DNA of 64,000 bases, from contig CADCNH010000010.1 in NCBI GenBank assembly GCA_902802755.1, positions 41,300 to 105,299 on the forward strand, in the 5' to 3' direction. The position numbers were made by a program, and so were the translations under genes. How positions within the stretch are numbered: the first letter of the stretch is position 1; every line of letters begins with the position of its first letter. Of the stretch, positions 11,801 to 28,085 are shown in pieces. The stretch is from an uncultured Bacteroidota bacterium. GTDB lineage: Bacteria; Bacteroidota; Bacteroidia; Bacteroidales; WCHB1-69. Under the pieces are notes generated by a model. That model saw nothing but the letters and a program-made list of their open reading frames with translations, was not told the origin of the DNA and searched no databases.

Positions 11801-12049
11801 CTGTCAAAAGAATTATCTGCTATCTATCCCAAGGGATACTCACCTCGCAACCTTCGCGATTATCGCCAGTTTTATCTGTGTTTCAAAGATTTGGAGATTT
11901 GGCACTCGCGAGTGCCAAATCTCACATGGACACATTATCGCACATTGCTTTCCGTCGTCAGTGATGATGCACGCTATTGATATGTACAGGAAGCATCGCG
12001 CGAAATGTGGAGTGTGCGCACTTTGGCTCGCAATGTGGGTTCTCAGTAA
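11801..12049 (+). pseudogene. Fragment of a DUF1016/YhcG-type (PDDEXK nuclease family) gene
   Basis: LSKELSAIYPKGYSPRNLRDYRQFYLCFKD ... NLTWTHYRTLLSV..DDARY*YVQEASREMWSVRTLARNVGSQ* resembles the N-terminal half of YhcG proteins. It has an in-frame TGA, and the nuclease half is missing. Confidence 0.5.
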
Positions 12050-12289
12050 AACTTGTTACTTGTTTAAGCAAGGAGAGAAAACTACTGCGTAATTATATTT
12101 GGAGACCGTAAGACACACGTTTACACTATGGACCTTGCTATGGAATTGGTGGAACATAGACGAGAATGAATACATTTATGGCTGGCACCAAACACAACAC
12201 CGCCATAGTCCGCCTCTCCTATTACGATAAGGCCAACTCCGAAAAGGTGCGCAACGCCGCTATGGACGATTTATAAAACATTCAAACTC

Positions 12290-12620
12290 GAATTGTAATC
12301 TTGCCAAATCACAAGGCAAACACATTACAATTTTCCCGCTGCTCCAGCCCTTGACTTTCGCGGCGGTCTCATTCTCCGCTCCGGTGCAATCTACACCCGC
12401 GCCGCGACTATAATGTATGATTATTCCCATTGCTATTGACATGGAATCCCTGACGGGATTCGGTGATGATGTGCAACCCTCTTCCCCAGGGTGATGGTGC
12501 TCGTACCTCGCACCTTGCCCTGGGCTATGATCTGAAACCCCTGACGGGGTTCTGTGACATATACATCCCCGTTTCCCCAGGGCGATGCCCTGGGCTAGCG
12601 GATTGCAGGATTTCAGCCAG
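12290..12620. repeat. Cluster of REP-like short hairpins
   Basis: Consecutive palindromes: ttgcc..ggcaa, gaatccctgacgggattc, cccaggg...ccctggg (twice), gaaacccctgacggggttc. The cccagggtgatggtgctcgtacctcgcaccttgccctggg unit recurs, reverse-complemented, inside the MITE at about 56940. Confidence 0.7.
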
Positions 12621-12908
12621 CAAATATTGGCACCACACGAAAAACAAAGCCTGGTGTTGAGCAATGGCGATGCGTGCGTGGGCAAGGCCGACGAGGAGGT
12701 GTTGCCGCCCGACGAGTTGCTCAAAGATTATTGTGCCAAGCGTACCGAACTTGACCGGAAAATTGACAGGACATTGACCGATATTCAGAGAATTTCAGGA
12801 ATCGATATTTCATAAATTTATACCAATCATTTTAAAAAAAAGAGTACCTTTGCGATTTGGAAACACGAAATGTGTTTAATACGACTTACGCACTATAAAC
12901 AGCCTACT

Positions 12909-13253
12909 ATGAACGATTTAACAGTTTCAAATATCGAACGACAGAATGTATTGAACAACCAATATGCAATCGCAAGGATTCAGGACAATCTTGGGGTGAC
13001 AGGTATGTTCTTTGACGACGAATACCTTTTTACTAAAAAGATGGTGGCAGATTTTTATGACGTGGATATATCAACAATAGACCGATACCTTCTTCAATAT
13101 CCAGACGAGCTAAAACAAAACGGATATTTTTTATGTAAAGGTAAAAGACTGAAAGAGTTTAAGTTACAATTTGCTCACGTCATAAATGAGGCGAGCAAAA
13201 CAACTCAGTTGGGATTATTCAACTTCCGTGCTTTTCTCAATATAGGAATGTGA
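12909..13253 (+). CDS. Hypothetical protein, possibly a truncated DNA-binding protein
   Basis: ORF with ATG at 12909 (MNDLTVSNIERQ...). An HTH-like stretch (KKMVADFYDVDISTIDRYL). It sits in a field of gene fragments, and the downstream sequence continues in another frame. Confidence 0.35.
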   Translation: MNDLTVSNIERQNVLNNQYAIARIQDNLGVTGMFFDDEYLFTKKMVADFYDVDISTIDRYLLQYPDELKQNGYFLCKGKRLKEFKLQFAHVINEASKTTQLGLFNFRAFLNIGM

Positions 13254-13432
13254 TGACGGCTCATTTTACAAAGGTTTTACCGAGGATTTGACAAAGAGGT
13301 ATCAGCAGCACTGCAGTGGAACAGGTGCAGATCATACACGTAAACATTACTACGACAAGGCCAACTCCGAAAAGGTGCGGAACGCCGCTATGGATGATTT
13401 ATAGAATTTGAATAGTCTGGTCGAGGCTTTTT

Positions 13433-13546
13433 CCGTTACGTCGAAGACGTAACATTATCTTTAACCCCACATTGGTCGGCACCGTAGGTGGCGGCTATGT
13501 GGGGTTTAGGCAGTCATAAGCAGCTCCTCTACGTCGAAGACGTAGC
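13433..13546. repeat. REP hairpins flanking RAYT-1 (downstream side)
   Basis: gttacgtcgaagacgtaac; ttaaccccacat(N22)atgtggggtt; ctacgtcgaagacgtag. Confidence 0.75.
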
Positions 13547-13554
13547 ACAACTCA

Positions 13555-13995
13555 TCAGTCATAAACATGAAACTCACAACCATTATCTGTGGTCATCTCA
13601 CCCATCTCCTTGTCAAAGGGTACCACCCCATGGTGTGCTTCTTGGTTCTTGATGTATTCTACGATGGCATCCTTCTGTCCCATACTGCAAGAGAAAGCAT
13701 AGTATTCCTTGCCCCATCCCACGAAGTCAGGGAATAGGTCTGAACGCTTCTTCGCCCAAATGGACGAGCTGCGTTTCAAGTTGTGCATAAACTGGGACAA
13801 AGATAGCTGTGATGATAAGTCCACCAGCAGATGGATGTGATTGGGAATGCCGTTCATCCTAATAAGTGTGCATCCGGAGTTCTTGATGATGCCATGCATA
13901 TAGGCATATAACTCGCGTTTGCTTTCCTCCGGGATGGTCATCTCGCGATTCTTCGTGTTGATGACGATATGGTATAGTGACTTTACTGTGCTCAT
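13555..13995 (-). mobile_element. IS200/IS605-like Y1 transposase, REP-associated (RAYT-type), copy 1
   Basis: 146 aa. YHIVINTKNRE, the HUH motif PNHIHLLV, and a C-terminal YIKNQEAHH region with the catalytic-Tyr-type helix. Flanked on both sides by inverted copies of the same hairpins. Confidence 0.8.
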
Positions 13996-14027
13996 GCATG
14001 GATTAACGCCATTTGCGGTTATTTATT

Positions 14028-14137
14028 GTGCTACGTCTTCGACGTAGAGGGAGGCTGGGACATCGTCTCTTAACCCCACATAGGTCGCTATGCTCCCATA
14101 ATGTGGGGTTAAAGAAATTATAACGTCTTTCGACGTA
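14028..14137. repeat. REP hairpins flanking RAYT-1 (upstream side)
   Basis: ctacgtcttcgacgtag; ttaaccccacat(N18)aatgtggggttaa; an acgtctttcgacgt-like copy. Mirror image of 13433-13546. Confidence 0.75.
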
Positions 14138-14196
14138 CTCCAAAGGTCTTTTGCATACTTTTCCATCTCTGGAAAAATATGAGAAAAAATTGCACA

Positions 14197-14230
14197 AAAA
14201 AAGAGGCTATCGAATGACAGCCTCTTTTTT
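14197..14230. terminator. Bidirectional hairpin terminator
   Basis: aaaaaagaggct-atcgaatgac-agcctctttttt, with A/T runs on both sides. It sits just downstream of the stop at 14249. Confidence 0.6.
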
Positions 14231-14248
14231 CAATATGCTTAAGAATGA

Positions 14249-15727
14249 TTATTTCTTCTTAGCAGCAGCTTTCTTGGCGGGAGCTTTCTTAGCAGCTGGT
14301 TTTGCAGCGGCTTTCTTAGCAGGAGCCTTCTTGTCGAGGAGGTGGTGTTTCTTTACGAACTCATCCAAAACTTCTTTCAAAGTAGGAGTACCGATTTCCT
14401 GGAGTTCATAACCAACTCTCACGCAAGGCTGTTTGATCTTGATGAAGCGCTGCAGGTCGATAGGAGTACCGATAACAACGGCATCGCAAGGAGTCTTGGC
14501 GATAGTTTTCTCGAGGTCCTTCATCTGTTTTTCGCCGTAGCCCATAGCGGGAAGCAAAGTACCGATGTTGGGATATCTTTCGTAAGTGGTGGTCAATTCA
14601 CCAACAGTGTAAGGTCTCGGGTCGATCAGTTCGGCAGCACCGTATTTCATAGCGGCAACAGTACCGGCACCAATCTTCATTTCACCGTGAGTCAATGTAG
14701 GACCATCTTCGATAACGAGAACTCTCTTGCCTTTCAGCAATTCGGGTTTGTCAACGGTGAGGATAGAAGCGCCGTCGATGATTTTAGCTTTCGGGTTGAT
14801 GCGAGCCAAGTTAGCTCTAACCTTGTTGATGTTCTCCAATGAAGCGGAGTCGATCTTGTTGATAACGATAACGTCGGCCATACGGGCAACTACTTCACCA
14901 GGATAGTAGCTAACTTCTGCACCGGGACGCAATGGGTCGGCAACGCCGATGAACAAGTCGGGTTCGTAGAAGGGGAAGTCGTTGTTACCACCATCCCACA
15001 GTACGATGTCGCAACCATCGGGATCGTTTTCAGCACCAGCCATTTTAACCCACTTGCCAGTCTGAGGATCTTTGGTCATACCACCCTTGAGGATAGCTTC
15101 ATAGTCAACACCAGCGTAGATCACATTTCTCTTGGTCACTACATGGGGTTCATATTCTTCCATCTCTTCGATGGTGCAGTTCTGCTTTTTCAGGTCAGCA
15201 ACTTCTGCGAAGCGCTGGATAGCCTGCTTGTTCAAATCGGGATCGTAAGGCATGGGGTGACGAACGGCAACAACCTTGAGGCCCATACCTACCAAATATT
15301 CAATAATACGACGTGAGGTCTGTGATTTACCGCAACCTGTACGGGTAGCACCAACAGCGATAACGGGTTTTGAGGATTTTACCATGGTGTCCTTGGGTCC
15401 CATCAAAACGAAGTTTGCGCCAGCAGCATTCACGATAGCGCTAACACCCATCACATAGTTGTAAGGTTTGTCGCTGTAAGCGAAAACGCATTCGTCAACT
15501 TTGAACTTCTTGATCAATTCGGGCAGTTTTGATTCGGGATAAATACGGATTCCGTTCGGATAGAGATCCTTACCTGCCAATTCCTTCGGATACAAACGGT
15601 CGTCGATACCGGGGATTTGTTCAGCGGTGAAAGCTACAACATTGTAATCTTTGTTACCACGGAAATAGGTGTTGAAGTTGTGGAAATCTCTACCTGCAGC
15701 ACCAATAATAATGACATTCTTTTTCAT
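14249..15727 (-). CDS. COG2403-like predicted GTPase (often annotated cyclic 2,3-diphosphoglycerate synthetase-like) with a Lys/Ala-rich tail
   Basis: 492 aa. N-terminal Rossmann-like IIIGAAGRDFHNF. P-loop GATRTGCGKSQT, plus WDGGNND. C-terminal KKAPAKKAAAKPAAKKAPAKKAAAKKK. Confidence 0.6.
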   Translation of the reverse strand: MKKNVIIIGAAGRDFHNFNTYFRGNKDYNVVAFTAEQIPGIDDRLYPKELAGKDLYPNGIRIYPESKLPELIKKFKVDECVFAYSDKPYNYVMGVSAIVNAAGANFVLMGPKDTMVKSSKPVIAVGATRTGCGKSQTSRRIIEYLVGMGLKVVAVRHPMPYDPDLNKQAIQRFAEVADLKKQNCTIEEMEEYEPHVVTKRNVIYAGVDYEAILKGGMTKDPQTGKWVKMAGAENDPDGCDIVLWDGGNNDFPFYEPDLFIGVADPLRPGAEVSYYPGEVVARMADVIVINKIDSASLENINKVRANLARINPKAKIIDGASILTVDKPELLKGKRVLVIEDGPTLTHGEMKIGAGTVAAMKYGAAELIDPRPYTVGELTTTYERYPNIGTLLPAMGYGEKQMKDLEKTIAKTPCDAVVIGTPIDLQRFIKIKQPCVRVGYELQEIGTPTLKEVLDEFVKKHHLLDKKAPAKKAAAKPAAKKAPAKKAAAKKK

Positions 15728-15786
15728 AAAAAATTGTGTTTTAGGTTATTATGTAAAAAAGATATTGTTTTTCAGAAAAAGCGGTG

Positions 15787-15794
15787 CAAAGATA
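15787..15794 (-). promoter_or_regulatory. -7 box TATCTTTG for the 14249-15727 gene
   Basis: The reverse complement of caaagata is TATCTTTG. It lies about 60 bp upstream of the start at 15727. Confidence 0.45.
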
Positions 15795-15856
15795 GTGATT
15801 TTTTCTTTACGATAAAATATTTTTCTATTCATAAAAAACAATTTTCATTATTTTGT

Positions 15857-15864
15857 TATCTTTG
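15857..15864 (+). promoter_or_regulatory. -7 box TATCTTTG for the 15893 gene
   Basis: ttgTTATCTTTGcaatc, 29 bp upstream of the ATG at 15893. Confidence 0.5.
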
Positions 15865-15892
15865 CAATCTGAATATAGAGAACTGAAAAATC

Positions 15893-17167
15893 ATGGATTA
15901 TAAGCAACAATACCAAAGTCAAGAGCCCAGTATAAAAATAGAAAACTTCGAAGAAACGATTCCTTTGTGTTTCAACACCATTTATTATGTGGAAAAAACT
16001 GGGAACGACAGCTTAAATGAGCTTGTGCGTCAGTGTTTCCAACGAAATCCAAACAGCAGGCTTCCACGCGACTTGCAAAAGCTTACTTACCGATTTCACT
16101 ACCTTACCCAAGCGGATGTGCAAACCGAGAATCTACGCAATCTCATCGCAAAAACAGGGGCAGATACTGATAGTCTTATTGCTATTGAAACCATCGGTCT
16201 TATACGCAAATGCCTCCACGCCGACACTGGTGGGCACCTTATAGCCCGACAACTGCCCAAACTAAAAAAATCTTACCATGAGGAAGAAGATGATAGCATT
16301 AACGAGTCTCTTATCAGCTTTCCGCTTCATGAAGCCAACTACAGTGCGGAACAGACCGCCACACAAATACAGAATTTTGTAATAGACCTGGCCAAAGCTG
16401 ACTTTACCAGTCTTTCAGGTGTTTCTTACTACAGATACTATTATGACAAACACGAACGGAGAACAAGTACAAGCAGAATATCATCCTCATTAACAATCAG
16501 TCTTCTCGTCCTACCTCTCAACATTCCGGAAATAGATAAAGAAATGCAAGAAACAATAAATACCTTGCATCAAAAAGGATATATCGATATTTCCAGTGAT
16601 GATGACACAAGCAATTCCAGTAATATTCTGCGTAAAATCGCCGATGCCATAGAAAACAACAACAAACTTGACAAGTTTTGCAAATTACAGGTGGACAAGC
16701 ATGGAGTGATTTTCATTGAGACACCACAGGGTGGCAAACTCAAATGCAACTTTGGCAGAGGAAGGTTAGGAAGAGCACTCTACATTCTCTTTTTGAGGCA
16801 AATAGAACGTGCAGCTAAGGACCTGTCTGGGAAGACCGCTAAAACAATTTGCGTCAAACCTATGGATATGGATAAAGAAAAAGAGATGCTTACCATTTAT
16901 AAAAAAATGGAGCCATCGTTGAGTCCACTTGCTATGCAAAGAACCATCAAAGAGTATTGTAAAGATACAGAAAACGACAGAAGCAAAATCAACAAATTCT
17001 TCGAAAGAACTTTCTATTTGAATGTCATTGAGAAGGCTCATCCAGGAAAGCACTACTCCATCAAAATTGTGGACCAAGACCCCATAACAGGCCAGAGTCT
17101 CCATGCTGTGGGACTGGATGCTGACGATTTCAAGCTCGGCGAATACAGCATTGACAAGTTGCCATAA
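15893..17167 (+). CDS. Hypothetical 424-aa protein (no domain recognised)
   Basis: Long ORF with its own promoter box. AT-rich relative to its neighbours, no signal peptide. Followed by the palindrome ttctgcta-c-tagcagaa at about 17173. Confidence 0.7.
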   Translation: MDYKQQYQSQEPSIKIENFEETIPLCFNTIYYVEKTGNDSLNELVRQCFQRNPNSRLPRDLQKLTYRFHYLTQADVQTENLRNLIAKTGADTDSLIAIETIGLIRKCLHADTGGHLIARQLPKLKKSYHEEEDDSINESLISFPLHEANYSAEQTATQIQNFVIDLAKADFTSLSGVSYYRYYYDKHERRTSTSRISSSLTISLLVLPLNIPEIDKEMQETINTLHQKGYIDISSDDDTSNSSNILRKIADAIENNNKLDKFCKLQVDKHGVIFIETPQGGKLKCNFGRGRLGRALYILFLRQIERAAKDLSGKTAKTICVKPMDMDKEKEMLTIYKKMEPSLSPLAMQRTIKEYCKDTENDRSKINKFFERTFYLNVIEKAHPGKHYSIKIVDQDPITGQSLHAVGLDADDFKLGEYSIDKLP

Positions 17168-17323
17168 GACATTCTGCTACTAGCAGAACACGCACTAATT
17201 TTGTTTTTATCTTCATTTTTGCAACGTGAAATTAATATTCACGCTGTGCTACATTATGGCATAGCTATGACTTAATTTTACGGCAAAAAAATGTATTTAT
17301 CTGACAAATCAAATTAGACCATC

Positions 17324-19066
17324 ATGAAAAAAGCGACAGACAACTTCAATGCCATCAGCACCTTCACCGATGTAGCGAGAATGCTGGACAACTCTCACAG
17401 CGAAATCCTCGGACTCTACAACGAGTCCATCGCCAAGATTCCCTTCGACAGCAAGTCTTTCAAACACAAGCTGACTTCACCTGAAAAAAACCAGGAATTG
17501 CAAGACAATGTGCAGAAACTCAGCAAACTTTTGAAAGCCACCCCTGAAGAGACCATAATCTTTGTAGCCATTTATGCCTACCAACTAGTTCACGACAGTG
17601 CTGCCGACACCCGCGACATCACCCGTTTTATCGGCATCAACGAGCTGGACTTTCTGCCACTGAAGAGCAGTTTACAATCCCTGCTGAAAAAAGGACAAAT
17701 CCGCATGGTGGAACGCCACAGACGTTATGACGAATACAAAATCAGCAAAGCGGCGGAAAATGCCCTGCTCAACAACAAACCATTCAAAGCCGAAAAAGCC
17801 GTGAAAATAGACCGCTACAAATTTTGCGAGCGCATTTCCGACTTTATAGAGATGCGAAGCAACGATGAAATGGAAACACGAGACTTGTTCAAGCTGGCAC
17901 AAGAGGAGGAAGAAAACAACAGTCAGCTCAAGTTCGTCAAAGAAGTAAATAAAATTCTGTCATCGGTGGAGGACCGCACGCTTTTTTACGAAATCTGCGA
18001 TGATTATGTGAGAGACAATCGCAGAAGAGCTGCCAGCGGACTCGACTGCACACTTTCCGACATCTACGACAGTTGTCGTGGCCGCCTAAATGTGGCCAAA
18101 TCCATTATGGCCAAGGAGCACGCCTTGTTAATCAACGATTTGGTGGAACTGCTTCCGTCAACATTCTTTGGTGACGCCTGTCTAACACTGACCGACAAAG
18201 GAAAAGCTCTTTTCCTGGAAAAAGACTTGGAGCTGTTCAACATCAAGGGAAAATCCGACAAACGACTGATTGCACCCGACAAGATTCCCGACAGAAAACT
18301 GTTCTTCAGTGAAGAACTCGGCAAAGAACTCAATTTCGTGCGAGAAAGTCTGATGGACGACAACTTCAAAAATCTGCAGCAACGCTTGGCCGACAACTCT
18401 CTACCCAAAGGGGTTACTCTGCTTTTCCATGGATTACCCGGCACCGGCAAAACCGCTGCCGCCGATATGCTGGCCAAAGCCACTGGTCGCAGCGTCTATC
18501 ATGTGGATATCGCCGCCTCCAAAACCTGTTGGTTCGGGGAAAGTGAGAAACTGTTCAAGCAGATTTTCACAGACTATCGCAAGATGTGCGAAAAGGAAGA
18601 AAAAAAGCCTATCCTCCTGTTCAACGAGGCCGACGCACTCTTCAGCAAACGCAAGGATGTGAATTCCGGCAGTTGTGCCCAGACCGAGAACGCATTGCAA
18701 AACATTCTTTTGGAAGAGATGGAGAACCTCGACGGTATCCTCATCGCAACCACCAACCTCAGCTTCAATCTCGACAGTGCTTTCGACCGCCGCTTCCTGT
18801 TCAAACTTTATTTCGGACAACCCGACACCGAGGCCAAGAAAGCCATCTGGAAAAGCAAACTCAGCTGGCTCTCCGACGAAGACGCCGACAAGCTGGCCTA
18901 CCGCTATAACCTTTCCGGCGGTGAAATCGACAACATCGTGCGCAAAACCCTGATGGAAGAGGTGCTGAACGGCCAACGCCCCACCCTTGCTACCCTCGAA
19001 AGCTGGTGCAAAGGCGAAAAACTGGAGCAGAAGAAAGGCCGAACAATTGGGTTCACAAAAAACTGA
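17324..19066 (+). CDS. AAA+ ATPase (classic AAA, PF00004-like) with an N-terminal wHTH-like region
   Basis: 580 aa. Walker A GLPGTGKT. Walker B region ILLFNEADALF, with Asn where Asp is canonical. Sensor-1 IATTN. DSAFDRRF Arg finger. The GESEKL motif is typical of the ATP-binding-protein clade seen in conflict loci. N-terminal DITRFIGINELDFLPLKSSLQSLLKKGQIRMVER looks like a winged helix. Confidence 0.85.
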   Translation: MKKATDNFNAISTFTDVARMLDNSHSEILGLYNESIAKIPFDSKSFKHKLTSPEKNQELQDNVQKLSKLLKATPEETIIFVAIYAYQLVHDSAADTRDITRFIGINELDFLPLKSSLQSLLKKGQIRMVERHRRYDEYKISKAAENALLNNKPFKAEKAVKIDRYKFCERISDFIEMRSNDEMETRDLFKLAQEEEENNSQLKFVKEVNKILSSVEDRTLFYEICDDYVRDNRRRAASGLDCTLSDIYDSCRGRLNVAKSIMAKEHALLINDLVELLPSTFFGDACLTLTDKGKALFLEKDLELFNIKGKSDKRLIAPDKIPDRKLFFSEELGKELNFVRESLMDDNFKNLQQRLADNSLPKGVTLLFHGLPGTGKTAAADMLAKATGRSVYHVDIAASKTCWFGESEKLFKQIFTDYRKMCEKEEKKPILLFNEADALFSKRKDVNSGSCAQTENALQNILLEEMENLDGILIATTNLSFNLDSAFDRRFLFKLYFGQPDTEAKKAIWKSKLSWLSDEDADKLAYRYNLSGGEIDNIVRKTLMEEVLNGQRPTLATLESWCKGEKLEQKKGRTIGFTKN

Positions 19067-19127
19067 AAATTGAAAACTGAAAGTTAACCATTAATAATTG
19101 ACAATTAATAGTTTAGAGTTAATAATT
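19062..19127. repeat. Heptamer word-repeat tract (CTGAAAA / TTGACAA / TTAATA words)
   Basis: aactgaaaattgaaaactgaaagttaaccattaataattgacaattaatagtttagagttaataatt. The stop codon TGA of the AAA+ gene (19064-19066) lies inside the first word. Confidence 0.7.
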
Positions 19128-19478
19128 ATGGAAAAGATCAACAACATTAATTATGTGCTTGTCCACGAGGCCTTCCAAAGGGACGGATGGACGATGTACC
19201 ACTATTTTATGAGAGGTAACAAATGGGTGAAAGGCAATGATACCGTCACATGCTTCCGTGGTGGTTACAAGTTGAATGGCGAACCGCTAAGCAATGAGCA
19301 CCTGGCTAAAATGCTGCACATCGACCAGCGTGCAATAGCGGTATGCGAAGCGATTGCACCGCATGAGGTGCATGGTGCATACGGAAGAGCCTTTCTTGAA
19401 GGCGTTCGCTGGGCGGATGCGCACCCTGCAAAGGGAGAAGGAGAAATCTCCATCGGTTCTGCTACTAGCAAAAACTAA
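19128..19478 (+). CDS. Hypothetical 116-aa protein
   Basis: ATG at 19128 (MEKINNINYVLVHEAF...). The track ORF begins earlier at a non-ATG start. No recognisable domain. Confidence 0.55.
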   Translation: MEKINNINYVLVHEAFQRDGWTMYHYFMRGNKWVKGNDTVTCFRGGYKLNGEPLSNEHLAKMLHIDQRAIAVCEAIAPHEVHGAYGRAFLEGVRWADAHPAKGEGEISIGSATSKN

Positions 19479-19552
19479 AGCCGAATCGTTTCCCTTCGTA
19501 TCTTTGCATCATAAAAATTAACAAAGAACGCTCAAAAAAAGACAAATTTCAT

Positions 19553-19560
19553 TATTTTTG
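19553..19560 (+). promoter_or_regulatory. -7 box TATTTTTG for the 19589 gene
   Basis: attATTATTTTTGcaaaa, 29 bp upstream of the ATG. A second box, TATCTTTG, is at 19499-19506. Confidence 0.45.
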
Positions 19561-19588
19561 CAAAAACATCTTTAACCCCCAAAACAAC

Positions 19589-20662
19589 ATGGCAAAACAA
19601 GCAACAACAAAGAAACCGGCTACCATTGTCGAAAAACTTGATCAACAGAACAGAAGACTCAATATTAACGCTTTTGAATTAGACAACGAAATTGTTTTCA
19701 ATTATTTCAATACAGTTCCGGAAGCCAACCGCGACGAAAAATTCACACAAGCACTCTACATCGGCGTGCTTGCCCTCATGGAGGACCGAATGTCAGCCTT
19801 CTTCGCCAAAACGTCTAACGAACTGGGTACACAACTCGAAAGTCTCAAAATGATTTTCGAAATGAAGAAGGAACTTTTCTTCAAATCAGCGGTAAAAGGA
19901 CAAATAGCCGAGCAGGAAATCGCCAGCGCACTCCAGGAATTTCTTGCAAAGAAATCCATAAAGGACAGTGTGGCATTGACCGGTACTGCCAGCGAAAAAG
20001 GGAAAAACAAGACGGGTGATATCTTATGCCAGATTGATGGCACAAGCTACTCCATCTCTATCGAATGTAAGTTTGACAAATCAATAAAACTGGGCAATAT
20101 CGCCGACAAAGATGTGTTTAACAAAAAAACAGACACCGCATGGAGCCAGCTGATCGAAGCCGATTACAACCGTGGCTCACAGTCTAGCATCATCGTATTC
20201 GACAAGGCATTGGTGGATAGATCTATCATCAGTTTCACAGACAGCGTTGCCTATATTCCTCAAGTGGGTTTCATCGCCATCATCGACTCTCAGGCCGGCA
20301 ACTACACCAACTTGGGCATCGCCTACATGCTGGCCAGAGACATCGCCACTAACGCGAAAACCGTACAACTCGACCCAACCGTGCTGACCATGATGATAAC
20401 CCGTTTAGTCAAAGACGTGAAAGATATTCTCAATATTAAAAATATGGTGGAAAATAATATCCAAAATAACAAAGAAATCCTCATAATGCTAGAGAAGAGC
20501 CTCCTCATGATGGAATTCAACCAGAAATATTTACAGAAATTCCTCACAGACGGCACTTTGAACAAAGAAGACTTGTTCAACTTTTACATGGGAGAAGACA
20601 TGAAGACAACGTATAATACGATCTGCAAAGACATTGAGAACACCTACCTGTTGAAAAACTAA
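19589..20662 (+). CDS. Hypothetical protein with a PD-(D/E)xK-like nuclease core (DUF2130/RmuC-like pattern) and a coiled-coil tail
   Basis: 357 aa. KGQIAEQEIASALQEFL (helix with Glu), then KTGDILCQIDG (Asp), then YSISIECKFDKS (E-x-K). The spacing is typical of restriction-endonuclease-like folds. This is a motif-level call only. Confidence 0.55.
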   Translation: MAKQATTKKPATIVEKLDQQNRRLNINAFELDNEIVFNYFNTVPEANRDEKFTQALYIGVLALMEDRMSAFFAKTSNELGTQLESLKMIFEMKKELFFKSAVKGQIAEQEIASALQEFLAKKSIKDSVALTGTASEKGKNKTGDILCQIDGTSYSISIECKFDKSIKLGNIADKDVFNKKTDTAWSQLIEADYNRGSQSSIIVFDKALVDRSIISFTDSVAYIPQVGFIAIIDSQAGNYTNLGIAYMLARDIATNAKTVQLDPTVLTMMITRLVKDVKDILNIKNMVENNIQNNKEILIMLEKSLLMMEFNQKYLQKFLTDGTLNKEDLFNFYMGEDMKTTYNTICKDIENTYLLKN

Positions 20663-21366
20663 TTCAAATCAAAACACAGCGACAGGATGTCTTTCCACAT
20701 CATGTCAAGATGCTCGGCAATCAGGCGATTGCACAGGATGCCCTTGAAGCAGAAAACACTCTGTAGCAAGGCGGGATTGGTCTGCACCACCACACGGAAA
20801 TTCTTAGAGTACAACAAGGCCTCGACCAAAGGCGTGATAAACATACCCAAGCGCTTGTTCATGATGTCAGCATTGGCCGACGACATCAGGATATTGTCCA
20901 GCTCGCTCCAATTGTCCTTATCCGTAATCAGGTTGATGGCAATCGCATACGCTCTCTTGTCTTTAAGCAATTGGATATATTGTTGTGTCAGCTCATTCAT
21001 AATCACTCTTGAAATGACAATCTGTTCCTCTTTCAGCATTGCCAATTCAGTTTCCGTGAAAGGTGAAAACTTCACCAAGAGTTTAGAAACCTCAACCAAC
21101 GACAAGAAATCGTCCATAATCTCGGCTCCGGCATCGGCATAATCCATATTAGTGAAACTGGTATGGGCTGCATAGTCACGCTGTACATAGACTTTCACCC
21201 CCTGCTCCACCAACTTTCCCACCAGCTCGGGCGTAAACAGCACCACATCGGGAATCGGCCGGTCGCCCTTGACCAAGCCCAGCGTCACAGGTTGTTCCAG
21301 CAGTCCGAAATCTATCGTCTGTGCCTGCGTTTCCGCCCCCGGTACATAATGCATCACCAAGTCCAT
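20659..21366 (-). CDS. AlaDH/PNT N-terminal-domain-like protein (no Rossmann domain)
   Basis: 235 aa. GDRPIPDVVLFTPELVGKLVEQGVKVYVQRDYAAHTSFTNMDYADAGAEI resembles the AlaDh_PNT_N substrate domain. I see no GxGxxG. The gene is 5 bp downstream of tsaE. Confidence 0.45.
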   Translation of the reverse strand: MDLVMHYVPGAETQAQTIDFGLLEQPVTLGLVKGDRPIPDVVLFTPELVGKLVEQGVKVYVQRDYAAHTSFTNMDYADAGAEIMDDFLSLVEVSKLLVKFSPFTETELAMLKEEQIVISRVIMNELTQQYIQLLKDKRAYAIAINLITDKDNWSELDNILMSSANADIMNKRLGMFITPLVEALLYSKNFRVVVQTNPALLQSVFCFKGILCNRLIAEHLDMMWKDILSLCFDLN

Positions 21367-21371
21367 GTCTC

Positions 21372-21776
21372 TTAATATTTAAATTCACGCTTGCCGTCTT
21401 CCAAAACCCTAATATCCACCCTCACATAATCGTCTGTCAACAATTCTTCCACCTTCTCCGTCCATTCGATAAAACAATAATTGCCGCTGTAAAGATAGTC
21501 GTCAAAGCCGATTTTCACCGCCTCGTCAATCGAATCAATACGATAAAAATCAAAGTGATAAACAGGCTCTCCATCAGCCGTAAAATACTCATTCACAATA
21601 GCAAAAGTCGGACTGGAAGTGGTAGCGGTAACGCCCAACTGGCGGCAAATCTCTTTAATCAGAGTGGTCTTGCCAGCCCCCATCTCACCAAAGAAGCCGA
21701 ACACACGCTCATCCGCATGTTTTTGCAGCAAATCCGCCGCCACTTTTGCCAATTCTTCCTGACTGTTGATTACCAT
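21372..21776 (-). CDS. tsaE: tRNA t6A37 biosynthesis ATPase TsaE
   Basis: 134 aa. FFGEMGAGKTTLIKEICRQLGV, SPTFAIVNEY, HFDFYR. Confidence 0.85.
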   Translation of the reverse strand: MVINSQEELAKVAADLLQKHADERVFGFFGEMGAGKTTLIKEICRQLGVTATTSSPTFAIVNEYFTADGEPVYHFDFYRIDSIDEAVKIGFDDYLYSGNYCFIEWTEKVEELLTDDYVRVDIRVLEDGKREFKY

Positions 21777-21780
21777 TATT

Positions 21781-21909
21781 TTTGTTGAATTGTTGAGTTG
21801 TTGAACTGTTGATAGGTTGAACTGTTGAACTGTTGAAAGGTTGAAGTTTTTGAGGGTGCGATTAATTGATTAAACAAATAAACAATTCAACAATTAAACG
21901 CTTAAACTC
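21781..21909. repeat. Word-repeat tract (GTTGAAC / GTTGAAT / TTAAAC words)
   Basis: tttgttgaattgttgagttgttgaactgttgataggttgaactgttgaactgttgaaaggttgaag ... aaacaaataaacaattcaacaattaaacgcttaaactcttaaac. Confidence 0.7.
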
Positions 21910-22776
21910 TTAAACATATTGTGTGTGATATTCTATCAGTTTCGGCATCGGGGAACCGATAATCGTGCCCAAACTGATATTCTTTTCCGCGGCCACCTCT
22001 TCAATGATTTCCTTGAAATGGAAAGCCACCGAACCCATCAGACTCACCGATTCATAGGTCATTTTGTCGTAATAGCCTATTTGGTTATCAAAAAACTCAG
22101 CAAAAGCCTCTTTGCATAAGCTTTTGATTACTGGATCATTCACATATTTCTGAATAAAGGGGGCAAATGATGAGAAGAACTTATTCGGACTGGCCTTGCG
22201 ATAAATTCGCTGGATCACTTTCGGAGGATTGATATCAAAAGTTTTCTCAATTTCGTCCAGCAGATACATCGGCAATTTTTCCATCATATAGCAGGTCACT
22301 AATTTCTTGCCCAGATGTGTACCACTACCCTCATCACCTATCAAATAACCCAATGATGGAGCACGTTTTACAATTTGGTTGCCATCGTATAAGCATGAGC
22401 TTGAGCCCGTGCCCAAAATAGCTACCAATCCCGGCTTATTACCACACAAAGCATGGCAAGCCTCCATCAAATCAGAATAAATCTTGAAGGATGCCGAAGG
22501 AAAATACTTGGCGATAACCGCGGCAATACGCATGGCATTTTGTTCTCCGGCACAGCCCGCCCCGTAATAGGTTATCAAAGCTGGCTGCATGTAATTCTCA
22601 GGCAAGGAATTGACAAAATGCGCAAATACCTTGTCAATCTGCTCATCACTGGAATAATTGGCATTGATACCCGTAGCGAAGAACTGATGCACAAGCTCCT
22701 TGCCCTTCAGCACAGCAAATTCAGTTTTAGTAGCCCCTGCATCAATAACTATATGTATATCAGTATTTTTCATCAT
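21910..22776 (-). CDS. BadF/BadG/BcrA/BcrD-type ATPase (N-acetylglucosamine kinase-like)
   Basis: 288 aa. IVIDAGATKTE, ILGTGSSSC, GYLIGDEGSG (ASKHA fold motifs). Confidence 0.75.
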   Translation of the reverse strand: MMKNTDIHIVIDAGATKTEFAVLKGKELVHQFFATGINANYSSDEQIDKVFAHFVNSLPENYMQPALITYYGAGCAGEQNAMRIAAVIAKYFPSASFKIYSDLMEACHALCGNKPGLVAILGTGSSSCLYDGNQIVKRAPSLGYLIGDEGSGTHLGKKLVTCYMMEKLPMYLLDEIEKTFDINPPKVIQRIYRKASPNKFFSSFAPFIQKYVNDPVIKSLCKEAFAEFFDNQIGYYDKMTYESVSLMGSVAFHFKEIIEEVAAEKNISLGTIIGSPMPKLIEYHTQYV

Positions 22777-23601
22777 CTATAAGTTGCTTCGAGGAATTGA
22801 AATCGGATTATTGCGTTTGTATTGTGATTTTTTGTAACGCTGAATCAGCACATGGTCTTCCAAAGACTTATCACCGGCAAAATAAGCGGCGAACAACTTG
22901 TCCACCTCGTAATAATTCGGTACGCCCAACTGCTCACAATCACAGCTGCTAATACCCAAACCATCCACTGGAGTAGCATCAATGCAAGATTGCAAAGCGG
23001 CACGTTGCTCAGCATTACATTCATCCAACAAGGCCTTTGCCAAATGGAAGACTTCAGTTTTCCACAAATGCATGATAGGGGCATAATCGCCCACATCGCC
23101 GTGCAAAGTCCAGAAACCCGTCAAGAATTCAGAGTAGTTGTCGGTAGAAATCACCATTCCTCCGTATAACTGGGCCAAATCATAGAGCACCATCATACGC
23201 ATACGGGCTTTCATATTACCCTGGCGCAACTTCGACAAATGCGAGTCATCGTAATGAATGAGCAGCTTTTTGTTTTCCAGAAAAGTCTCTGTCAAATCCA
23301 AATGCTGGAAATCCGTGCAAAAGTTCTTTCCTACCGTCAGCGAGCGGGCCACCTCATCATTGGGGTTGGTCTCAATAGTGATGGAACGGCCTATAAGCGG
23401 AATATTGTGTTGCAAGCACACTGGACGGAGCAAGGCAGAACACAAAGCGCTATCGATACCGCCGGAAATGCCCAGCACTAACGATTTCAAGCCGCATTGG
23501 CTCAAATAATCACTCACTATGCCACGAATATTTTCGGCCACTTTGAGCAAGCGCTCACGGTCGGTCATAAACGGGAAAAAATTACTGTCGGGTATAGTCA
23601 T
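22777..23601 (-). CDS. nadE: NH3-dependent NAD+ synthetase
   Basis: 274 aa. The PP-loop LGISGGIDSALCSALL, then TDNYSEFLTGFWTLHGD. Confidence 0.85.
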   Translation of the reverse strand: MTIPDSNFFPFMTDRERLLKVAENIRGIVSDYLSQCGLKSLVLGISGGIDSALCSALLRPVCLQHNIPLIGRSITIETNPNDEVARSLTVGKNFCTDFQHLDLTETFLENKKLLIHYDDSHLSKLRQGNMKARMRMMVLYDLAQLYGGMVISTDNYSEFLTGFWTLHGDVGDYAPIMHLWKTEVFHLAKALLDECNAEQRAALQSCIDATPVDGLGISSCDCEQLGVPNYYEVDKLFAAYFAGDKSLEDHVLIQRYKKSQYKRNNPISIPRSNL

Positions 23602-23758
23602 TTTTCATTTTAATTTTAGAACTACAAAAATACAAAAAAAGCGGCAATAAAACTATGAACTAAGAGTTAAGAGTGTTTATTTGTTTATTTGTTGAATTGT
23701 ATAATGTTTACATCACTACCCCGCCCTTCGGGCACCCCTTCTAATAGAAGGGGAATTT

Positions 23759-26344
23759 TCAGTTTTCAGTTTTCAGTTCATTATCTCCTGCCGTCTCAAA
23801 TTTCGGCATTTGGCGAATGTAGATGTCACGCTGCGGGAAGGGGATTTCAATCTTGTTCTTATTCAAAGTATTGTAAATCACTTCTTTAATCTTAGCCACC
23901 ACCCCTGCTTTTTCTTCCACCAGCACCCAGCATACCACAAACAAATCCACGCTGCTGTCGCCGAAATCGTTGAAGATTACCTTCACGCCCTGCTTGGTAT
24001 CAAACACATTCTTGCCTGCAGCATTTTTCACTGCCAAAGGCTCAATATTTTTGACCAGCATATTCCGCACTTTCTCCACATTCACACCGTATGCCACACC
24101 CACGGGAATCTTCACCAGCACATAACCATGATTGCGGGTCAGATTCTTGAAATTCTTGCTGAACAGGGCCGCATTTTGGAATGCCATCACACTGCCGTCG
24201 AGGGTCACAATCTGTGTACTCTGGTAATTGATACTATCGACTTTGCCTTGAATTCCATCACATTCAATATAGTCGCCCACACGCAAACGACCTGTCATGA
24301 GAGAGATGCCATAGATAAAATTTTCCAGCAGGTCTTTCATGGCGAAGCCAAGACCGGTAGCCAGACCCGCCATCACGATGGAGATACCGCTACTGGGTAC
24401 TTCCAGAATCATCAACGAGGCCACGACATACAAGCCCCATACCAGAATCGAAATGATATTGTTGGCCAATGTAATGTTACCTTGGGGTTTACCTTCCTTT
24501 TTATTACGTTTTTTCAGCATCTGATAGAAGGCCCTGATAGCATAATTCAGGTAACGGAACAAGAAATAGAGTTCTGTCACCAAACATATCTTGTATAAAG
24601 AAAGTTGGACAAGACTCGGCTTATTCAGGAAAACATACAAGAATATCTTTTTACATATAGAAGTCATTTCGAAAATGCTTGCTGCCCAATAAATACTTGC
24701 CGGAATTGACAAAATGGCCAAAATGGGCAGCAAAGCCTTGAAGAGGAAATCATAGAACCAAGTTTGACCGATATATTCACCCTTGGCCATTTTAGGTTGG
24801 ATTTTTTTGAAAAACTTCTGCAAATCGTTTTCACTTCTGATTTTTTCTCCTTGTTCCTTGGCGATTTTGCGGATCAGACGATTGGCCTCGTACATCTTGG
24901 CCAAATCATAAAAACATGTAATAGTTTGTATAGCGGCTAACTGTATCATCCACCACAGCATTATCTGGACAGCCAGCAACACATAACCCATCCATGAAGC
25001 TCCGCAGGAAACAATCATCACGATAAGGCAGATCATGGTATAAATCATATCACTGTCGGGCAGTTTGGCGATTTTCTTTCTCACCACAATAAACTGCCAT
25101 ATTGTGAACAGCAAGAGAATAGGCGGGTAAATAAGGTTAACCAAATTATTAGGTATCAACACCATGCGAAAAACTATCACCACAAAGGCCATGATAATAA
25201 ACGGAATATAGGAACGCACGCCTGCACGAATCTGCTTATCATTCAATCTGATTAACAGAGAGACAAGGATTACCTCCACCAGCCAGGAGAAGAATATCAT
25301 CAGGTTGATAGCCATGCGTACGAAATTCTGTTTCACGAAGAACATGGCGATGGTGATGGAAATAGCGAAAATAGCCACACCACAGGCAATAGTGATAAAA
25401 AGCCGTTTATTGTTGGCCTTGAAATACCGTCTCCATTTTTTAGGGAGCACCCAGCGCATCAGCGCGTAACTGAGCAGGCTGGCCAAAAGGATATAGAAGA
25501 GCATAAACACGCTGATACCGAAAATGACGGGGCCTCTCCATTCGGAAGCGGTTTTGAAAGGCTTGTAACGGTCGTCCACGTCCTTTTTCGCTATCATGTA
25601 GTTCATTCTGAAGCGTTTGATAGTTTGGAAATAATTATTGCCCCCATTCACAAAAATGTTGTTTTGTATTTTTTCATAGCGGGACAAGGCGTATGCATTC
25701 AGTTTTTCCACTCGCTTGGTCACTTTATTATAGTGTTCCTTGTCGAGTTCCACTTTTTCCAACAATGCCAGATAATTATCACGGATTGCGGTGGCGAAAT
25801 CCACACAAGCCTCACGGTCTTCCAATCCTTTGCCATCCAGGACATAGAGCAGGTTTTTACTGGTATCCAATACCATTTTAGGCAACAATTTCTGCAGGGA
25901 GTCGGGGGCCATGGTCAGCTCACCGTTCGGCAACATTCGTGGAGGCAGATTTTCCAGGGTTAGGATAAGTGCGTCATACCGTTCTATTTCAGTTTTAAGA
26001 CGCTCTATCATCTTGTTGTACGGCATGTGTCGCATTCTCAGCTGCCTATACTGTTCGGTCGCTGCCTGGCAGGCGTATGCCATATCGAAAGTGAAGTCCG
26101 AATTCTGCGAATAGAGCATCAGCGCGATTTGGTTGCTGTTCTGCATCATCCGGATCAGGTTGGCATGCTGGTCCACATTGCGTTTCTCGAACATGGCCAT
26201 CAAAGTCTTTTGCTCATTGTAAGTCTGTGCCAACTCAGCGCGCAACACGCCAAGGGTTTGTGGCAGATCTTTCTCCTTCAAGACGGCATGAGCCTGGAAA
26301 AGCGTCAGTGCACAAAGCAAGACAAAAACTAGTATCTTCTTCAT
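23759..26344 (-). CDS. Large MscS-family mechanosensitive channel (MscK-like)
   Basis: 861 aa. Signal peptide, a long periplasmic coiled region and multiple TM helices. MscS core LENFIYGISLMTGRLRVGDYIECDGIQGKVDSINYQSTQIVTLDGSVMAFQNAALF. Confidence 0.85.
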   Translation of the reverse strand: MKKILVFVLLCALTLFQAHAVLKEKDLPQTLGVLRAELAQTYNEQKTLMAMFEKRNVDQHANLIRMMQNSNQIALMLYSQNSDFTFDMAYACQAATEQYRQLRMRHMPYNKMIERLKTEIERYDALILTLENLPPRMLPNGELTMAPDSLQKLLPKMVLDTSKNLLYVLDGKGLEDREACVDFATAIRDNYLALLEKVELDKEHYNKVTKRVEKLNAYALSRYEKIQNNIFVNGGNNYFQTIKRFRMNYMIAKKDVDDRYKPFKTASEWRGPVIFGISVFMLFYILLASLLSYALMRWVLPKKWRRYFKANNKRLFITIACGVAIFAISITIAMFFVKQNFVRMAINLMIFFSWLVEVILVSLLIRLNDKQIRAGVRSYIPFIIMAFVVIVFRMVLIPNNLVNLIYPPILLLFTIWQFIVVRKKIAKLPDSDMIYTMICLIVMIVSCGASWMGYVLLAVQIMLWWMIQLAAIQTITCFYDLAKMYEANRLIRKIAKEQGEKIRSENDLQKFFKKIQPKMAKGEYIGQTWFYDFLFKALLPILAILSIPASIYWAASIFEMTSICKKIFLYVFLNKPSLVQLSLYKICLVTELYFLFRYLNYAIRAFYQMLKKRNKKEGKPQGNITLANNIISILVWGLYVVASLMILEVPSSGISIVMAGLATGLGFAMKDLLENFIYGISLMTGRLRVGDYIECDGIQGKVDSINYQSTQIVTLDGSVMAFQNAALFSKNFKNLTRNHGYVLVKIPVGVAYGVNVEKVRNMLVKNIEPLAVKNAAGKNVFDTKQGVKVIFNDFGDSSVDLFVVCWVLVEEKAGVVAKIKEVIYNTLNKNKIEIPFPQRDIYIRQMPKFETAGDNELKTEN

Positions 26345-26386
26345 ATTCGAAATTTTATTCTTACATTATTTTTAAAATTGAGTTGG

Positions 26387-26394
26387 CAAAGATA
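26387..26394 (-). promoter_or_regulatory. -7 box TATCTTTG for the channel gene
   Basis: Reverse complement of caaagata, about 43 bp upstream of the start at 26344. Confidence 0.45.
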
Positions 26395-26436
26395 CGAAAA
26401 AAAAGCTGTGTCTTTGCCGAATCAAATTGAACTACT

Positions 26437-27537
26437 ATGTCGAAAAAAATACTGATCGCAACAGGGGGTGGTGACTGCCCCGGATTGAACGCCGTCATCA
26501 GAGGCATTGTGAAAAGCGCGGCCCAGGAAGAGGGCTGGCAAGTGTTCGGAAGCATAGAATCCTTTAACGGAATACTGAAAGACAATGTGGAAATTGTAGA
26601 GTTAACCGAGAAAAAGGTGGACTACCTGCATGTGATGGGCGGCACCATCATCAAAACCACTAACAAAGGAGGCCCTTTCTACTTTCCTGTACAGAAAGAC
26701 GACGGCACATGGGTAACCGAAGACCGCTCGGAACTGATGAAAAAACGCCTCAACAACATGGGCATCGACGCTGTCATCAATATCGGTGGCGACGGCTCAC
26801 AAGCCATTTCATTGGCATTGAGCAAAATAGGCATCAATGTGGTGGGCGTCCCAAAAACCATCGACAACGACCTTTCCTCTACCGATTTCACCTTCGGTTT
26901 TCAGACAGCAGTACAGATTGCCACCGAATGTTTCGACAAGATAGTGACCACTGCCGCAAGCCACAGCCGAGTGTTCATCATGGAAGTAATGGGTCGCGAT
27001 GCCGGCTGGATTGCCCTGCATACCGCTATTGCAGGTGGTGCCGATGTATGCATTATTCCCGAAATACCCTACGATCCACGTAAAATCATTGAGAAAATAG
27101 AAAGCTGCTACCACCAAGGAAAGGAATTCTGCAACATCGTGATTGCCGAAGGAGCCAAAGCCCTCGACGGCAAGGTTACCGGCACCAATCCGACCGCTAT
27201 CGGCGACCGCCACATCAAGTTAGGCGGCGTGGGTGAAAAGCTGAAACAGGAGCTGGCAGACCTCGGTGTGGAGCACGATATCAGAGTCACCGTCTTAGGC
27301 CACCTGCAACGCGGCGGCACCCCCATCGCTTTTGACCGTATCCTGGCCACAGAATTTGGTGTCAAGGCCTTCGAATTGGTGAAAGAAGGGAAATTCGGCA
27401 ATATGGTGACCTACCGTCACCCCAACATCTCGTATGTTCCAATCAAAGAAGCTTTGAAAAAACCTCATCTGGTAAATCCCGACACAGACTTCTTAGTACA
27501 CACCGCACGCCGCATCGGTATGTGCTTGGGTGACTAA
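26437..27537 (+). CDS. pfkA: 6-phosphofructokinase
   Basis: 366 aa. GGGDCPGLNAVIRG, NIGGDGS, PKTIDNDL, MGRDAGWIAL. Confidence 0.9.
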   Translation: MSKKILIATGGGDCPGLNAVIRGIVKSAAQEEGWQVFGSIESFNGILKDNVEIVELTEKKVDYLHVMGGTIIKTTNKGGPFYFPVQKDDGTWVTEDRSELMKKRLNNMGIDAVINIGGDGSQAISLALSKIGINVVGVPKTIDNDLSSTDFTFGFQTAVQIATECFDKIVTTAASHSRVFIMEVMGRDAGWIALHTAIAGGADVCIIPEIPYDPRKIIEKIESCYHQGKEFCNIVIAEGAKALDGKVTGTNPTAIGDRHIKLGGVGEKLKQELADLGVEHDIRVTVLGHLQRGGTPIAFDRILATEFGVKAFELVKEGKFGNMVTYRHPNISYVPIKEALKKPHLVNPDTDFLVHTARRIGMCLGD

Positions 27538-27558
27538 AAAAGGATTTTCTATATAACA

Positions 27559-27592
27559 AAAAAGGACTGCGTTTTGCCACAGTCCTTTTTTT
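27559..27592. terminator. Bidirectional rho-independent-type terminator between convergent genes
   Basis: aaaaaggactg-cgttttgcca-cagtccttttttt. Confidence 0.7.
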
Positions 27593-27607
27593 ATGGTCAA
27601 ACAACCA

Positions 27608-28054: not shown

Positions 28055-28070
28055 TGTTCCAATTTTTTTG

Positions 28071-28078
28071 CAAAGATA
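28071..28078 (-). promoter_or_regulatory. -7 box TATCTTTG for 27608-28054
   Basis: Reverse complement of caaagata, 17 bp upstream of the ATG. Confidence 0.45.
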
Positions 28079-28085
28079 GTAATAA

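Follow-up and report, generated by a model that had tools for sequence, protein, structure and literature searches.

A modular, strain-variable candidate defence island with a palindrome-containing promoter in an uncultured Bacteroidales bacterium

In this study, we analysed a window of 64,000 nucleotides (nt) from an uncultured bacterium of the Bacteroidales (contig CADCNH010000010.1, positions 41,300 to 105,299), in which four same-strand genes, here called g1 to g4 (Table 1), had been singled out by an original prediction, made from the sequence alone, as a candidate conflict system. On balance, the locus is probably a modular, co-regulated and strain-variable conflict island, most likely a defence island, and not one fixed four-gene machine. 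That the cassette is accessory, unnamed, and combines an ATPase (g2) with a PD-(D/E)xK protein (g4) was correctly foreseen; that the four genes make up a single system was not. We regard it as a likely defence island since it is drawn from separately travelling modules, uses a shared promoter, and includes a member of a nuclease family that ends anti-phage operons elsewhere; the defence function itself is suggested by this context. The locus is a variation on the familiar theme of nucleoside triphosphatase (NTPase)-plus-nuclease defence islands, with the palindrome-tagged cassettes and the g4 family as side findings.

Comparison with related loci (L numbers) revealed three allelic states at one site: empty in L180, four genes in the window, and enlarged in L195. 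L180, found through a look-up of the identical TsaE protein, matches the flanks of the island contiguously in blastn (window 14190-15828 and 20653-28226, 86-95% nt identity), and the cassette together with the g1 promoter is replaced there by 13-21 nt, the AlaDh-like gene adjoining the gene for the 492-aa flank protein directly. The 21 nt at the empty site resemble the last g4 codons (16/24 aligned), which points, though not decisively, to a deletion more than to an insertion. L195 shares its left junction with the window, and its g1 and g2 are 86% and 96% identical in amino acids to those of the window, with an extra 4.4 kb between the two genes encoding proteins of 275 aa and 59 aa, NT5C, a 223-aa protein and PDDEXK_4. 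Variable presence between strains at the junction of the GTPase-like gene and tsaE, which the original prediction had put forward as something to look for, is thus observed. An ungapped repeat finder gave no exact direct repeats flanking the whole island, and its ends share a weak A-rich similarity, judged by eye.

The shared promoter is built on a 17-bp palindrome, TTCTGCTAnTAGCAGAA, which has 8-bp arms, a 1-nt centre and the half-sites TTCTGCTA. Copy 2 differs from the 18-mer of copy 1 by 2 mismatches, where chance would give 0.02 matches in 64 kb, and in both window copies the 13-mer palindrome core lies exactly 27 nt from the -7 box, the palindrome occupying the -33 region of a composite promoter. 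The composite pattern, CTGCTANTNGCAR-N30-32-TTTGY (CTGCTANTNGCARN{30,32}TTTGY), occurs 2 times in the window and 0 times in 100 shuffles. Among 200 loci it was found in 26, all of them islands with the close g2 subfamily and together representing ~10 distinct lineages, and in none of the other 174. It always precedes g2, and precedes LRR_5, UPF0227 and other cargo genes as well; upstream of g1 the palindrome is absent from 8 other loci except L022. Alignment of 17 composite promoters showed TGCTAnTnGCA and TTTG to be invariant and the spacing fixed, so the palindrome is more readily taken as a promoter element than as a scar, and its fixed geometry relative to the -7 box argues for a regulatory site of a dimeric factor. 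Viral contigs gave 12 exact matches to the palindrome, about the chance level, none of them in promoter context.

Each gene had been credited with its own TAnnTTTG box, and the intergenic regions with tracts of word repeats. The box is exact for g1 and g4, near-consensus only for g2, and missing from the spacer before g3; the word repeats stand for the g2-g3 spacer, 61 nt made of tandem words. Since this spacer has no -7 box, g3 probably shares the transcript of g2. A second conserved block, ACTATGCCA...TTTCATA with a second TATTTTTGC-like box after it, lies in the 5' leader of g2 (17230-17300; L195 5960-6030; L018, L020) and may be a second promoter or operator.

The palindrome is also the site where cassettes have been gained, lost or swapped. 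Over 5 kb, L015 and L017 share 99.84% identity, which is lost precisely where the palindrome core ends, and the L195 insertion is flanked on both sides by TTTCTGCTACTAGCAGAA, the same 18-mer as at window 17172-17189. This exchange could reflect either a dedicated mechanism or merely the fact that the palindrome is the only long identical stretch. The arrangement recalls integron-type and hotspot cassette arrays in its variable number of cassettes at one site and its breakpoints on a short repeated palindrome; however, attC sites stand at the 3' end of promoterless cassettes, whereas the island repeat is 5', within the promoter of each cassette, and the island has no integrase.

The four genes are not co-conserved, contrary to what a single system would imply: only g1 and g2 stay together, as a conserved pair restricted to Bacteroidales, and g3 and g4 are distributed independently. 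The pair occurs without g3 or g4 in L014, L015-L018 and L022, and the genes after g2 vary by locus (UPF0227, LRR_5, small unknowns; gyrA in L014). In the rumen Bacteroidales L020, L024, L101, L196 and L197, homologs of g1-g2, g3 and g4 lie within ~10 kb, and the larger rumen islands also hold RmuC, NADAR, ART-PolyVal, PARG, NT5C, DUF2779, UPF0227, LRR_5, RtcB and a type III restriction-modification (RM) system; few of their cargo genes match PADLOC. One obligate four-gene defence system, with g1 to g4 as sensor, ATPase, adaptor and nuclease, is therefore very unlikely and largely excluded by the distributions. It would account for the joint gain or loss of all four genes relative to L180, for the palindrome promoter common to g2-g3 and g4, and for the clustering of g2-, g3- and g4-type genes in a stretch of 10 kb in L020 and in L101, two other lineages; but the adjacent order g1-g2-g3-g4 is confined to the lineage of the window, five other genes lie between g1 and g2 in L195, g3 stands upstream of g1 in L011, and >80 g4 relatives accompany unrelated modules. 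In L020, L024, L101 and L196 a conserved divergent pair of RtcB and RF-1-like (PrfH-type) genes stands beside the island, ~1.5-2 kb upstream of the g1/AAA_14-g2 pair and on the opposite strand.

The independent movement of g3 is apparent from copies 86-94% identical in amino acids in L011, L020/L196 and L197. In L011 the copy lies upstream of g1, in L020/L196 it follows a g2-type AAA gene and UPF0227, and in L197 it is one of a long row of genes adjoining a type III RM system. Homology stops at 19426-19441, 14 nt ahead of palindrome copy 2; conservation is confined to the coding sequence, so the idea of conserved recombination sites at the ends of g3 was rejected. Its relatives are usually 94-106 aa long, and the 116-aa protein of the window has an extended C-terminus because its open reading frame (ORF) runs into the next promoter module.

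Among 1.84 billion proteins the tiny g1 family numbers 67 representatives, and clusters at 90% identity hold 3 members for g1, 26 for g2 and 261 for g3. In the close g2 subfamily a g1 homolog is nearly always found immediately upstream (directly upstream in L011, L014, L015-18, L022, L024 and L101), and g1 evolves fast, being 27-46% identical where the paired g2 homologs are 51-78% identical. Conservation is concentrated in the C-terminal ~150 aa, and the best-conserved part has the order helix-helix-helix-hairpin. Neither g1 nor g3 matched anything in Pfam, NCBIfam, PHROG or PADLOC, in agreement with the earlier remark that the two resemble nothing recognisable. The g1 profile gave nothing useful against Protein Data Bank (PDB) sequences, and Foldseek against the PDB found no credible structural neighbour for its AlphaFold model (predicted local distance difference test, pLDDT, 69.7). 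A relation of g1 to sigma or WYL proteins, from which it might have diverged, was considered and dropped, hhalign against the sigma70-like and WYL partners giving a probability <1%.

By its sequence, g2 is, as had been proposed, a classic-clade AAA+ ATPase; it is intact and of the hexameric, substrate-threading type. It matches PF00004 AAA (E 7e-23, 82 bits against a cut-off of 21.2), with a Vps4/CdvC/IetA-like ATPase domain at residues about 360-550 preceded by a family-specific N-terminal region of ~340 aa. Across 34 homologs, Walker A (GxxGTGKT, 370-377, with G370/G373-T377), the pore loop W403-F404-G405, E435, D437, the sensor N478 and the Arg fingers R489/R490 are invariant, and in at least 90% of this family the Walker B Asp is replaced by Asn434, giving NE instead of DE. 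The Asn of the LLFNEAD motif, pointed out in the original prediction, is therefore family-wide and the sole departure from the classic-clade pattern. With its catalytic motifs invariant, g2 is apparently active as a substrate-threading ATPase, though the residue at its metal site is unusual. Its best PDB and NCBIfam sequence matches are VAT, Afg2, CdvC and p97 (E 1e-20 to 1e-15). Vps4/CdvC and Cdc48-type unfoldases share with it the W-F-G pore loop, the second region of homology and the double Arg fingers, but g2 differs in its single AAA domain, unrelated N-terminus, Walker B Asn and bacterial accessory-island context. The original prediction had placed a winged-helix-like segment in this N-terminus. 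No Pfam family matched residues 1-345, a profile of 12 N-terminal regions found no match among PDB sequences, and residues ~95-135 have a pattern compatible, by eye only, with a winged helix-turn-helix.

Full-length g2 homologs (50-78% identity) are common across Bacteroidales, and a search of species-representative genomes for the motif ILLFNEAD gave at least 590 stretches, a single genome often having several. Of 85 loci of the wider AAA family, 18 have a WYL-WCX regulator no more than two genes from the ATPase gene, 8 have g1 there and 5 a sigma70-like protein; DEDDh exonuclease, DUF262, AAA_14 and RM genes are other frequent neighbours. A conserved module beside variable conflict cargo is likewise seen with the WYL regulators BrxR/CapW and with CapH-CapP, the g2 sister subfamilies adjoining WYL-WCX or sigma70-like genes and the window cargo sharing a palindromic site; on the other hand, neither of these systems includes an AAA+ unfoldase, and g1 has no homology to WYL or sigma proteins. 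In one sister subfamily (L023, L031, L036, L059), one or two sigma70-like genes (286-288 aa) precede the AAA gene. The same sigma70-like family stands directly upstream of the g4 homolog in L100, a further cross-link within the gene pool. That the genes are an ordinary Bacteroidales housekeeping or stress regulon with no role in genetic conflict would suit the 50-78% conservation of g2 and its dedicated promoter, but is extremely unlikely in view of the empty and expanded alleles in close relatives, the several paralogs per genome with varying chromosomal neighbours, and neighbourhoods rich in RM, WYL, DUF262 and RtcB-PrfH genes.

The locus could not be placed in any named defence system, as had been claimed: neither PADLOC (PADLOC-DB v2.0.0) nor NCBIfam searches gave a system. 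The IetA model of PADLOC matches g2 at E 1e-23 over the ATPase domain alone, the IteA_antiphage model of NCBIfam at E 7e-21 with 74.8 bits against a cut-off of 510, and CdvC is likewise far below its cut-off; in PADLOC, g2 resembles IetA and TRIP13 through generic AAA similarity only. IetAS reportedly consists of the AAA+ ATPase IetA and the subtilisin-like serine protease IetS (Gao et al. 2020). Like IetAS, g1-g2 pairs a classic AAA+ ATPase with a partner protein in a two-gene module, and the g2 ATPase domain (residues about 350-555) aligns with the IetA models; unlike IetA, g2 has the 340-aa N-terminal region and the Walker B Asn, and no protease family of Pfam, PADLOC or NCBIfam matched g1, g3 or g4. 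It is conceivable, although rather unlikely, that g1-g2 is a self-contained IetAS-like effector pair with g3 and g4 as passengers, the palindrome being a recombination scar or hotspot with no regulatory role. In its favour, the pair is the sole conserved unit, no models come closer to the ATPase domain than IetA and CdvC, the palindrome is where breakpoints fall, and g4 relatives in other Bacteroidales have no such promoter. Against this, the 27-nt spacing between palindrome and -7 box is fixed in 17/17 aligned copies, and g1 has no recognisable enzymatic domain.

The fourth gene encodes a PD-(D/E)xK (Mrr/restriction-endonuclease-fold) protein flanked by long helices, a predicted nuclease on the evidence of its sequence and model, in line with the E...D...ExK spacing noticed earlier. 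The catalytic-type residues E108, D144 and E159-C-K161 are invariant in 35 diverse homologs, PF24608 PDDEXK_15 gives a borderline pass (27.1 bits, cut-off 27), and the top Foldseek matches of the AlphaFold model, itself of moderate quality (pLDDT 66), are all PD-(D/E)xK proteins, namely the DdmD nuclease domain, EcoT38I, Hjc, Can2 and a CroV Mrr-domain protein (E 2.8e-4). A PDB sequence search with the g4 profile gave nothing useful. The C-terminus of g4 extends 3-4 aa beyond those of its relatives because the ORF reads into flanking DNA.

This widespread family (labelled D1 in our analysis) has 2686 detected homologs, which are ~60-65% identical across Bacteroidota and 56% identical in a Paracoccus plasmid copy, so that identities run from 56 to 65% between Prevotella and Paracoccus. 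Its genomic context was sampled in 80 metagenome loci and a few others, with all ORFs clustered. The g4-type gene closes an operon whose genes all run in one direction and is tightly coupled to it, with a gap of <=21 nt to the preceding gene in 73/77 loci, and where at least 1.5 kb of upstream sequence was present (69 loci), a recognised NTPase defence module lies directly upstream in 61. These modules are SIR2-HerA, usually with a small KTSC gene (27 loci), an LmuB-like SMC ATPase (15 loci, 13 of cluster D15 with a 340-aa partner and 2 of a second SMC-like cluster, D109), an OLD-type ATPase-TOPRIM with or without the reverse transcriptase (RT) UG39 (11 loci), AAA_13/PDC-S06 (6 loci) and PDC-S46 (2 loci), and in many cases hsdS and hsdR of a type I RM system flank the operon. 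The layout of the window mirrors the generic order of NTPase gene, small gene and g4-type gene.

The operon SIR2 - HerA (DUF87) - KTSC - g4-family protein, or an analogous one with another of these modules in place of SIR2-HerA, recurs in L005, L008, L105-L177 and L201, the last a RefSeq example on Paracoccus zhejiangensis plasmid pPZ02 (159899-164244) in which the g4-type gene is annotated 'hypothetical protein'. Operons of this type resemble the window in their last gene, 56-65% identical to g4 with the same E/D/ExK residues; they differ from it in that the window NTPase is of the classic AAA+ type, not of HerA, ABC or SMC type, and SIR2, HerA (DUF87) and KTSC are not in the window island, SIR2 and HerA being absent nearby too. 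According to one paper, a KTSC-domain gene can be coupled to HerA-like ATPases (PMC9503650), and a 2026 classification divides Sir2-HerA into three types by protection profile, with no extra component named in the accessible part of that paper (PMC13434337). We found no paper on PF24608/PDDEXK_15 or the g4 family. Several other observations concern this family. Small KTSC, KTSC-like and WYL-like genes often precede the NTPase operons that end in a g4-type gene. One member, P0098 (63% identical), carries the label of a Candidatus Odinarchaeota metagenome-assembled genome, which could reflect contamination or cross-domain transfer. In L100, the g4 homolog is closely preceded by a tandem array of 4-5 copies of the heptamer GGAATTC (~1710-1745). 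An assignment of g4 to phages, implied by the Pfam name, was dropped, the family being carried by 2 of 2.9 million viral contigs.

Mobile-element cargo for counter-defence or interbacterial immunity, instead of anti-phage defence of the host, is a distinctly unlikely explanation of the island. Larger versions do carry ART-PolyVal/DUF3990, NADAR, PARG, NT5C, Bro-N and ORF6N and are long same-strand arrays with an own promoter per gene, and a second indel relative to L180, 2-3 kb from the island, contains an IS200 and an ORF6N-like gene. However, no integrase, conjugation or phage structural genes surround the island in the window, and viral contigs, phages and plasmids carry g2, g3 and g4 rarely or not at all: the g2 family has ~6 clear matches in 2.9 million viral contigs and 8 distant matches on plasmids, one plasmid copy of the g4 family was found, and none of g3 was found in phages, plasmids or IMG/VR. 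In addition, relatives of g4 form part of SIR2-HerA, OLD, SMC-like and type I RM operons.

Under the modular reading that we prefer, g1-g2 is the conserved core, and cargo is arranged in units each opened by the palindrome promoter, two of which, g2-g3 and g4, are present in the window. A dimeric DNA-binding factor may recognise the palindrome and so switch the units together, with g1 or the N-terminal region of g2 as candidate binders; the AAA+ ATPase might remodel this factor or a target protein, and g4 may act in defence as a nucleic-acid-cutting effector or accessory. Several points weigh against this reading. A DNA-binding role of g1 or the g2 N-terminus finds no support in Pfam or the PDB, nor, for g1, in Foldseek, and about half of the wider AAA loci have no recognisable transcription-factor neighbour. 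In the window, g4 is not tightly coupled to an upstream gene: a 110-nt gap and its own promoter take the place of the translational coupling of most of its relatives. The other Bacteroidales g4 homologs, in L009, L020 and L100-L102, lack the palindrome promoter, so that the link of g4 to it is lineage-specific, g4 having been recruited in the lineage of the window. Because the g4 family is ~60% identical whatever the upstream module, a specific physical partnership with that module is disfavoured. The defence role is proposed from sequence and gene context; g1, g3 and g4 have no match in PADLOC-DB at E up to 1, and much of the island gene pool (ART, NADAR, PARG and Bro-N/ORF6N) would be just as typical of counter-defence by mobile elements.

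The layout of the locus is as had been described, with four co-oriented genes between a GTPase-like gene and the tsaE operon and a 4-nt overlap of the stops of g4 and the AlaDh-like gene (20659-20662). The mosaic composition also noted earlier is present, though mild (guanine-plus-cytosine fraction ~0.37-0.44 in g1, up to 0.52 in g2 and ~0.40-0.45 in g4), and an Rfam scan of the island gave no RNA family. The 492-aa P-loop protein of the left flank has a Lys/Ala-rich, histone-H1-like C-terminal tail (KKAPAKKAAAKPAAKKAPAKKAAAKKK), its matches to cobW/HypB-type proteins are weak, and an identical-protein look-up with it gave no match. The second indel relative to L180 (window 11803-14190) is 2.4 kb here vs ~395 nt there, and contains a 76-aa ORF, a weak ORF6N-like gene (12870-13253) and an IS200-type Y1 transposase gene (13555-13995; PF01797, E 3e-25). 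Y1 transposase genes also occur near g2-type AAA genes in L022, L046 and L047. A third indel (window 8711-9463) spans most of a 281-aa TonB_C ORF (8704-9549) that is absent from the L180 lineage.

Table 1. Positions of the island, its genes and promoter elements, and the flanking genes (window coordinates)
Feature	Position	Strand	Remarks
Whole accessory island	15829-20652		4.8 kb; absent from L180 by blastn of the window
g1	15893-17167	+	424 aa
g2	17324-19066	+	580 aa, AAA+ ATPase
g3	19128-19478	+	116 aa counted from ATG
g4	19589-20662	+	357 aa, PD-(D/E)xK protein
-7 box of g1 promoter	15857-15864	+	TATCTTTG, read from the sequence; no palindrome upstream
Palindrome copy 1	17172-17189		TTCTGCTACTAGCAGAAC; 5 nt past g1 stop, 152 nt ahead of g2 ATG
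Composite g2 promoter	17174-17222	+	palindrome core, 27 nt, CATTTTTGC
-7 box of g2, near-consensus	17214-17221	+	CATTTTTG
Tandem word repeats, g2-g3 spacer	19059-19127		periods 7, 14 and 28; no -7 box
Palindrome copy 2	19457-19474		TTCTGCTACTAGCAAAAA; inside last g3 codons, 132 nt ahead of g4 ATG
Composite g4 promoter	19459-19507	+	palindrome core, 27 nt, TATCTTTGC
First -7 box before g4	19499-19506	+	TATCTTTG, exact TAnnTTTG
Second -7 box before g4	19553-19560	+	TATTTTTG, exact TAnnTTTG
Left flank gene	14249-15727	-	492 aa, P-loop, weakly cobW-like (GTPase-like)
Right flank AlaDh_PNT_N gene	20659-21366	-	convergent with g4
tsaE	21372-21776	-	next after the AlaDh_PNT_N gene

A broader proposal joins these strands, and we offer it tentatively, as possible but doubtful: the locus would be an undescribed Bacteroidales cassette island in which the palindromic promoter both puts each cargo unit under a common switch, the g1/g2 pair, and is the exchange junction, and the g4 family would be an unrecognised, near-universal accessory nuclease of NTPase defence systems (SIR2-HerA, OLD with or without RT, SMC-like and AAA_13) from Bacteroidota to Alphaproteobacteria. 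If challenge with phages or plasmids shows nothing, the locus would be an ordinary variable island of unknown genes. If the defence reading is true, the island would add a new AAA+-based module to the gut and rumen Bacteroidales, whose defence repertoire is poorly charted. The palindrome promoter would then serve as a DNA tag for listing the cargo pool of such islands, mostly genes without known function, and studies of SIR2-HerA, OLD and SMC-like systems may have missed a component in the very conserved g4 family, still annotated as 'hypothetical protein'.

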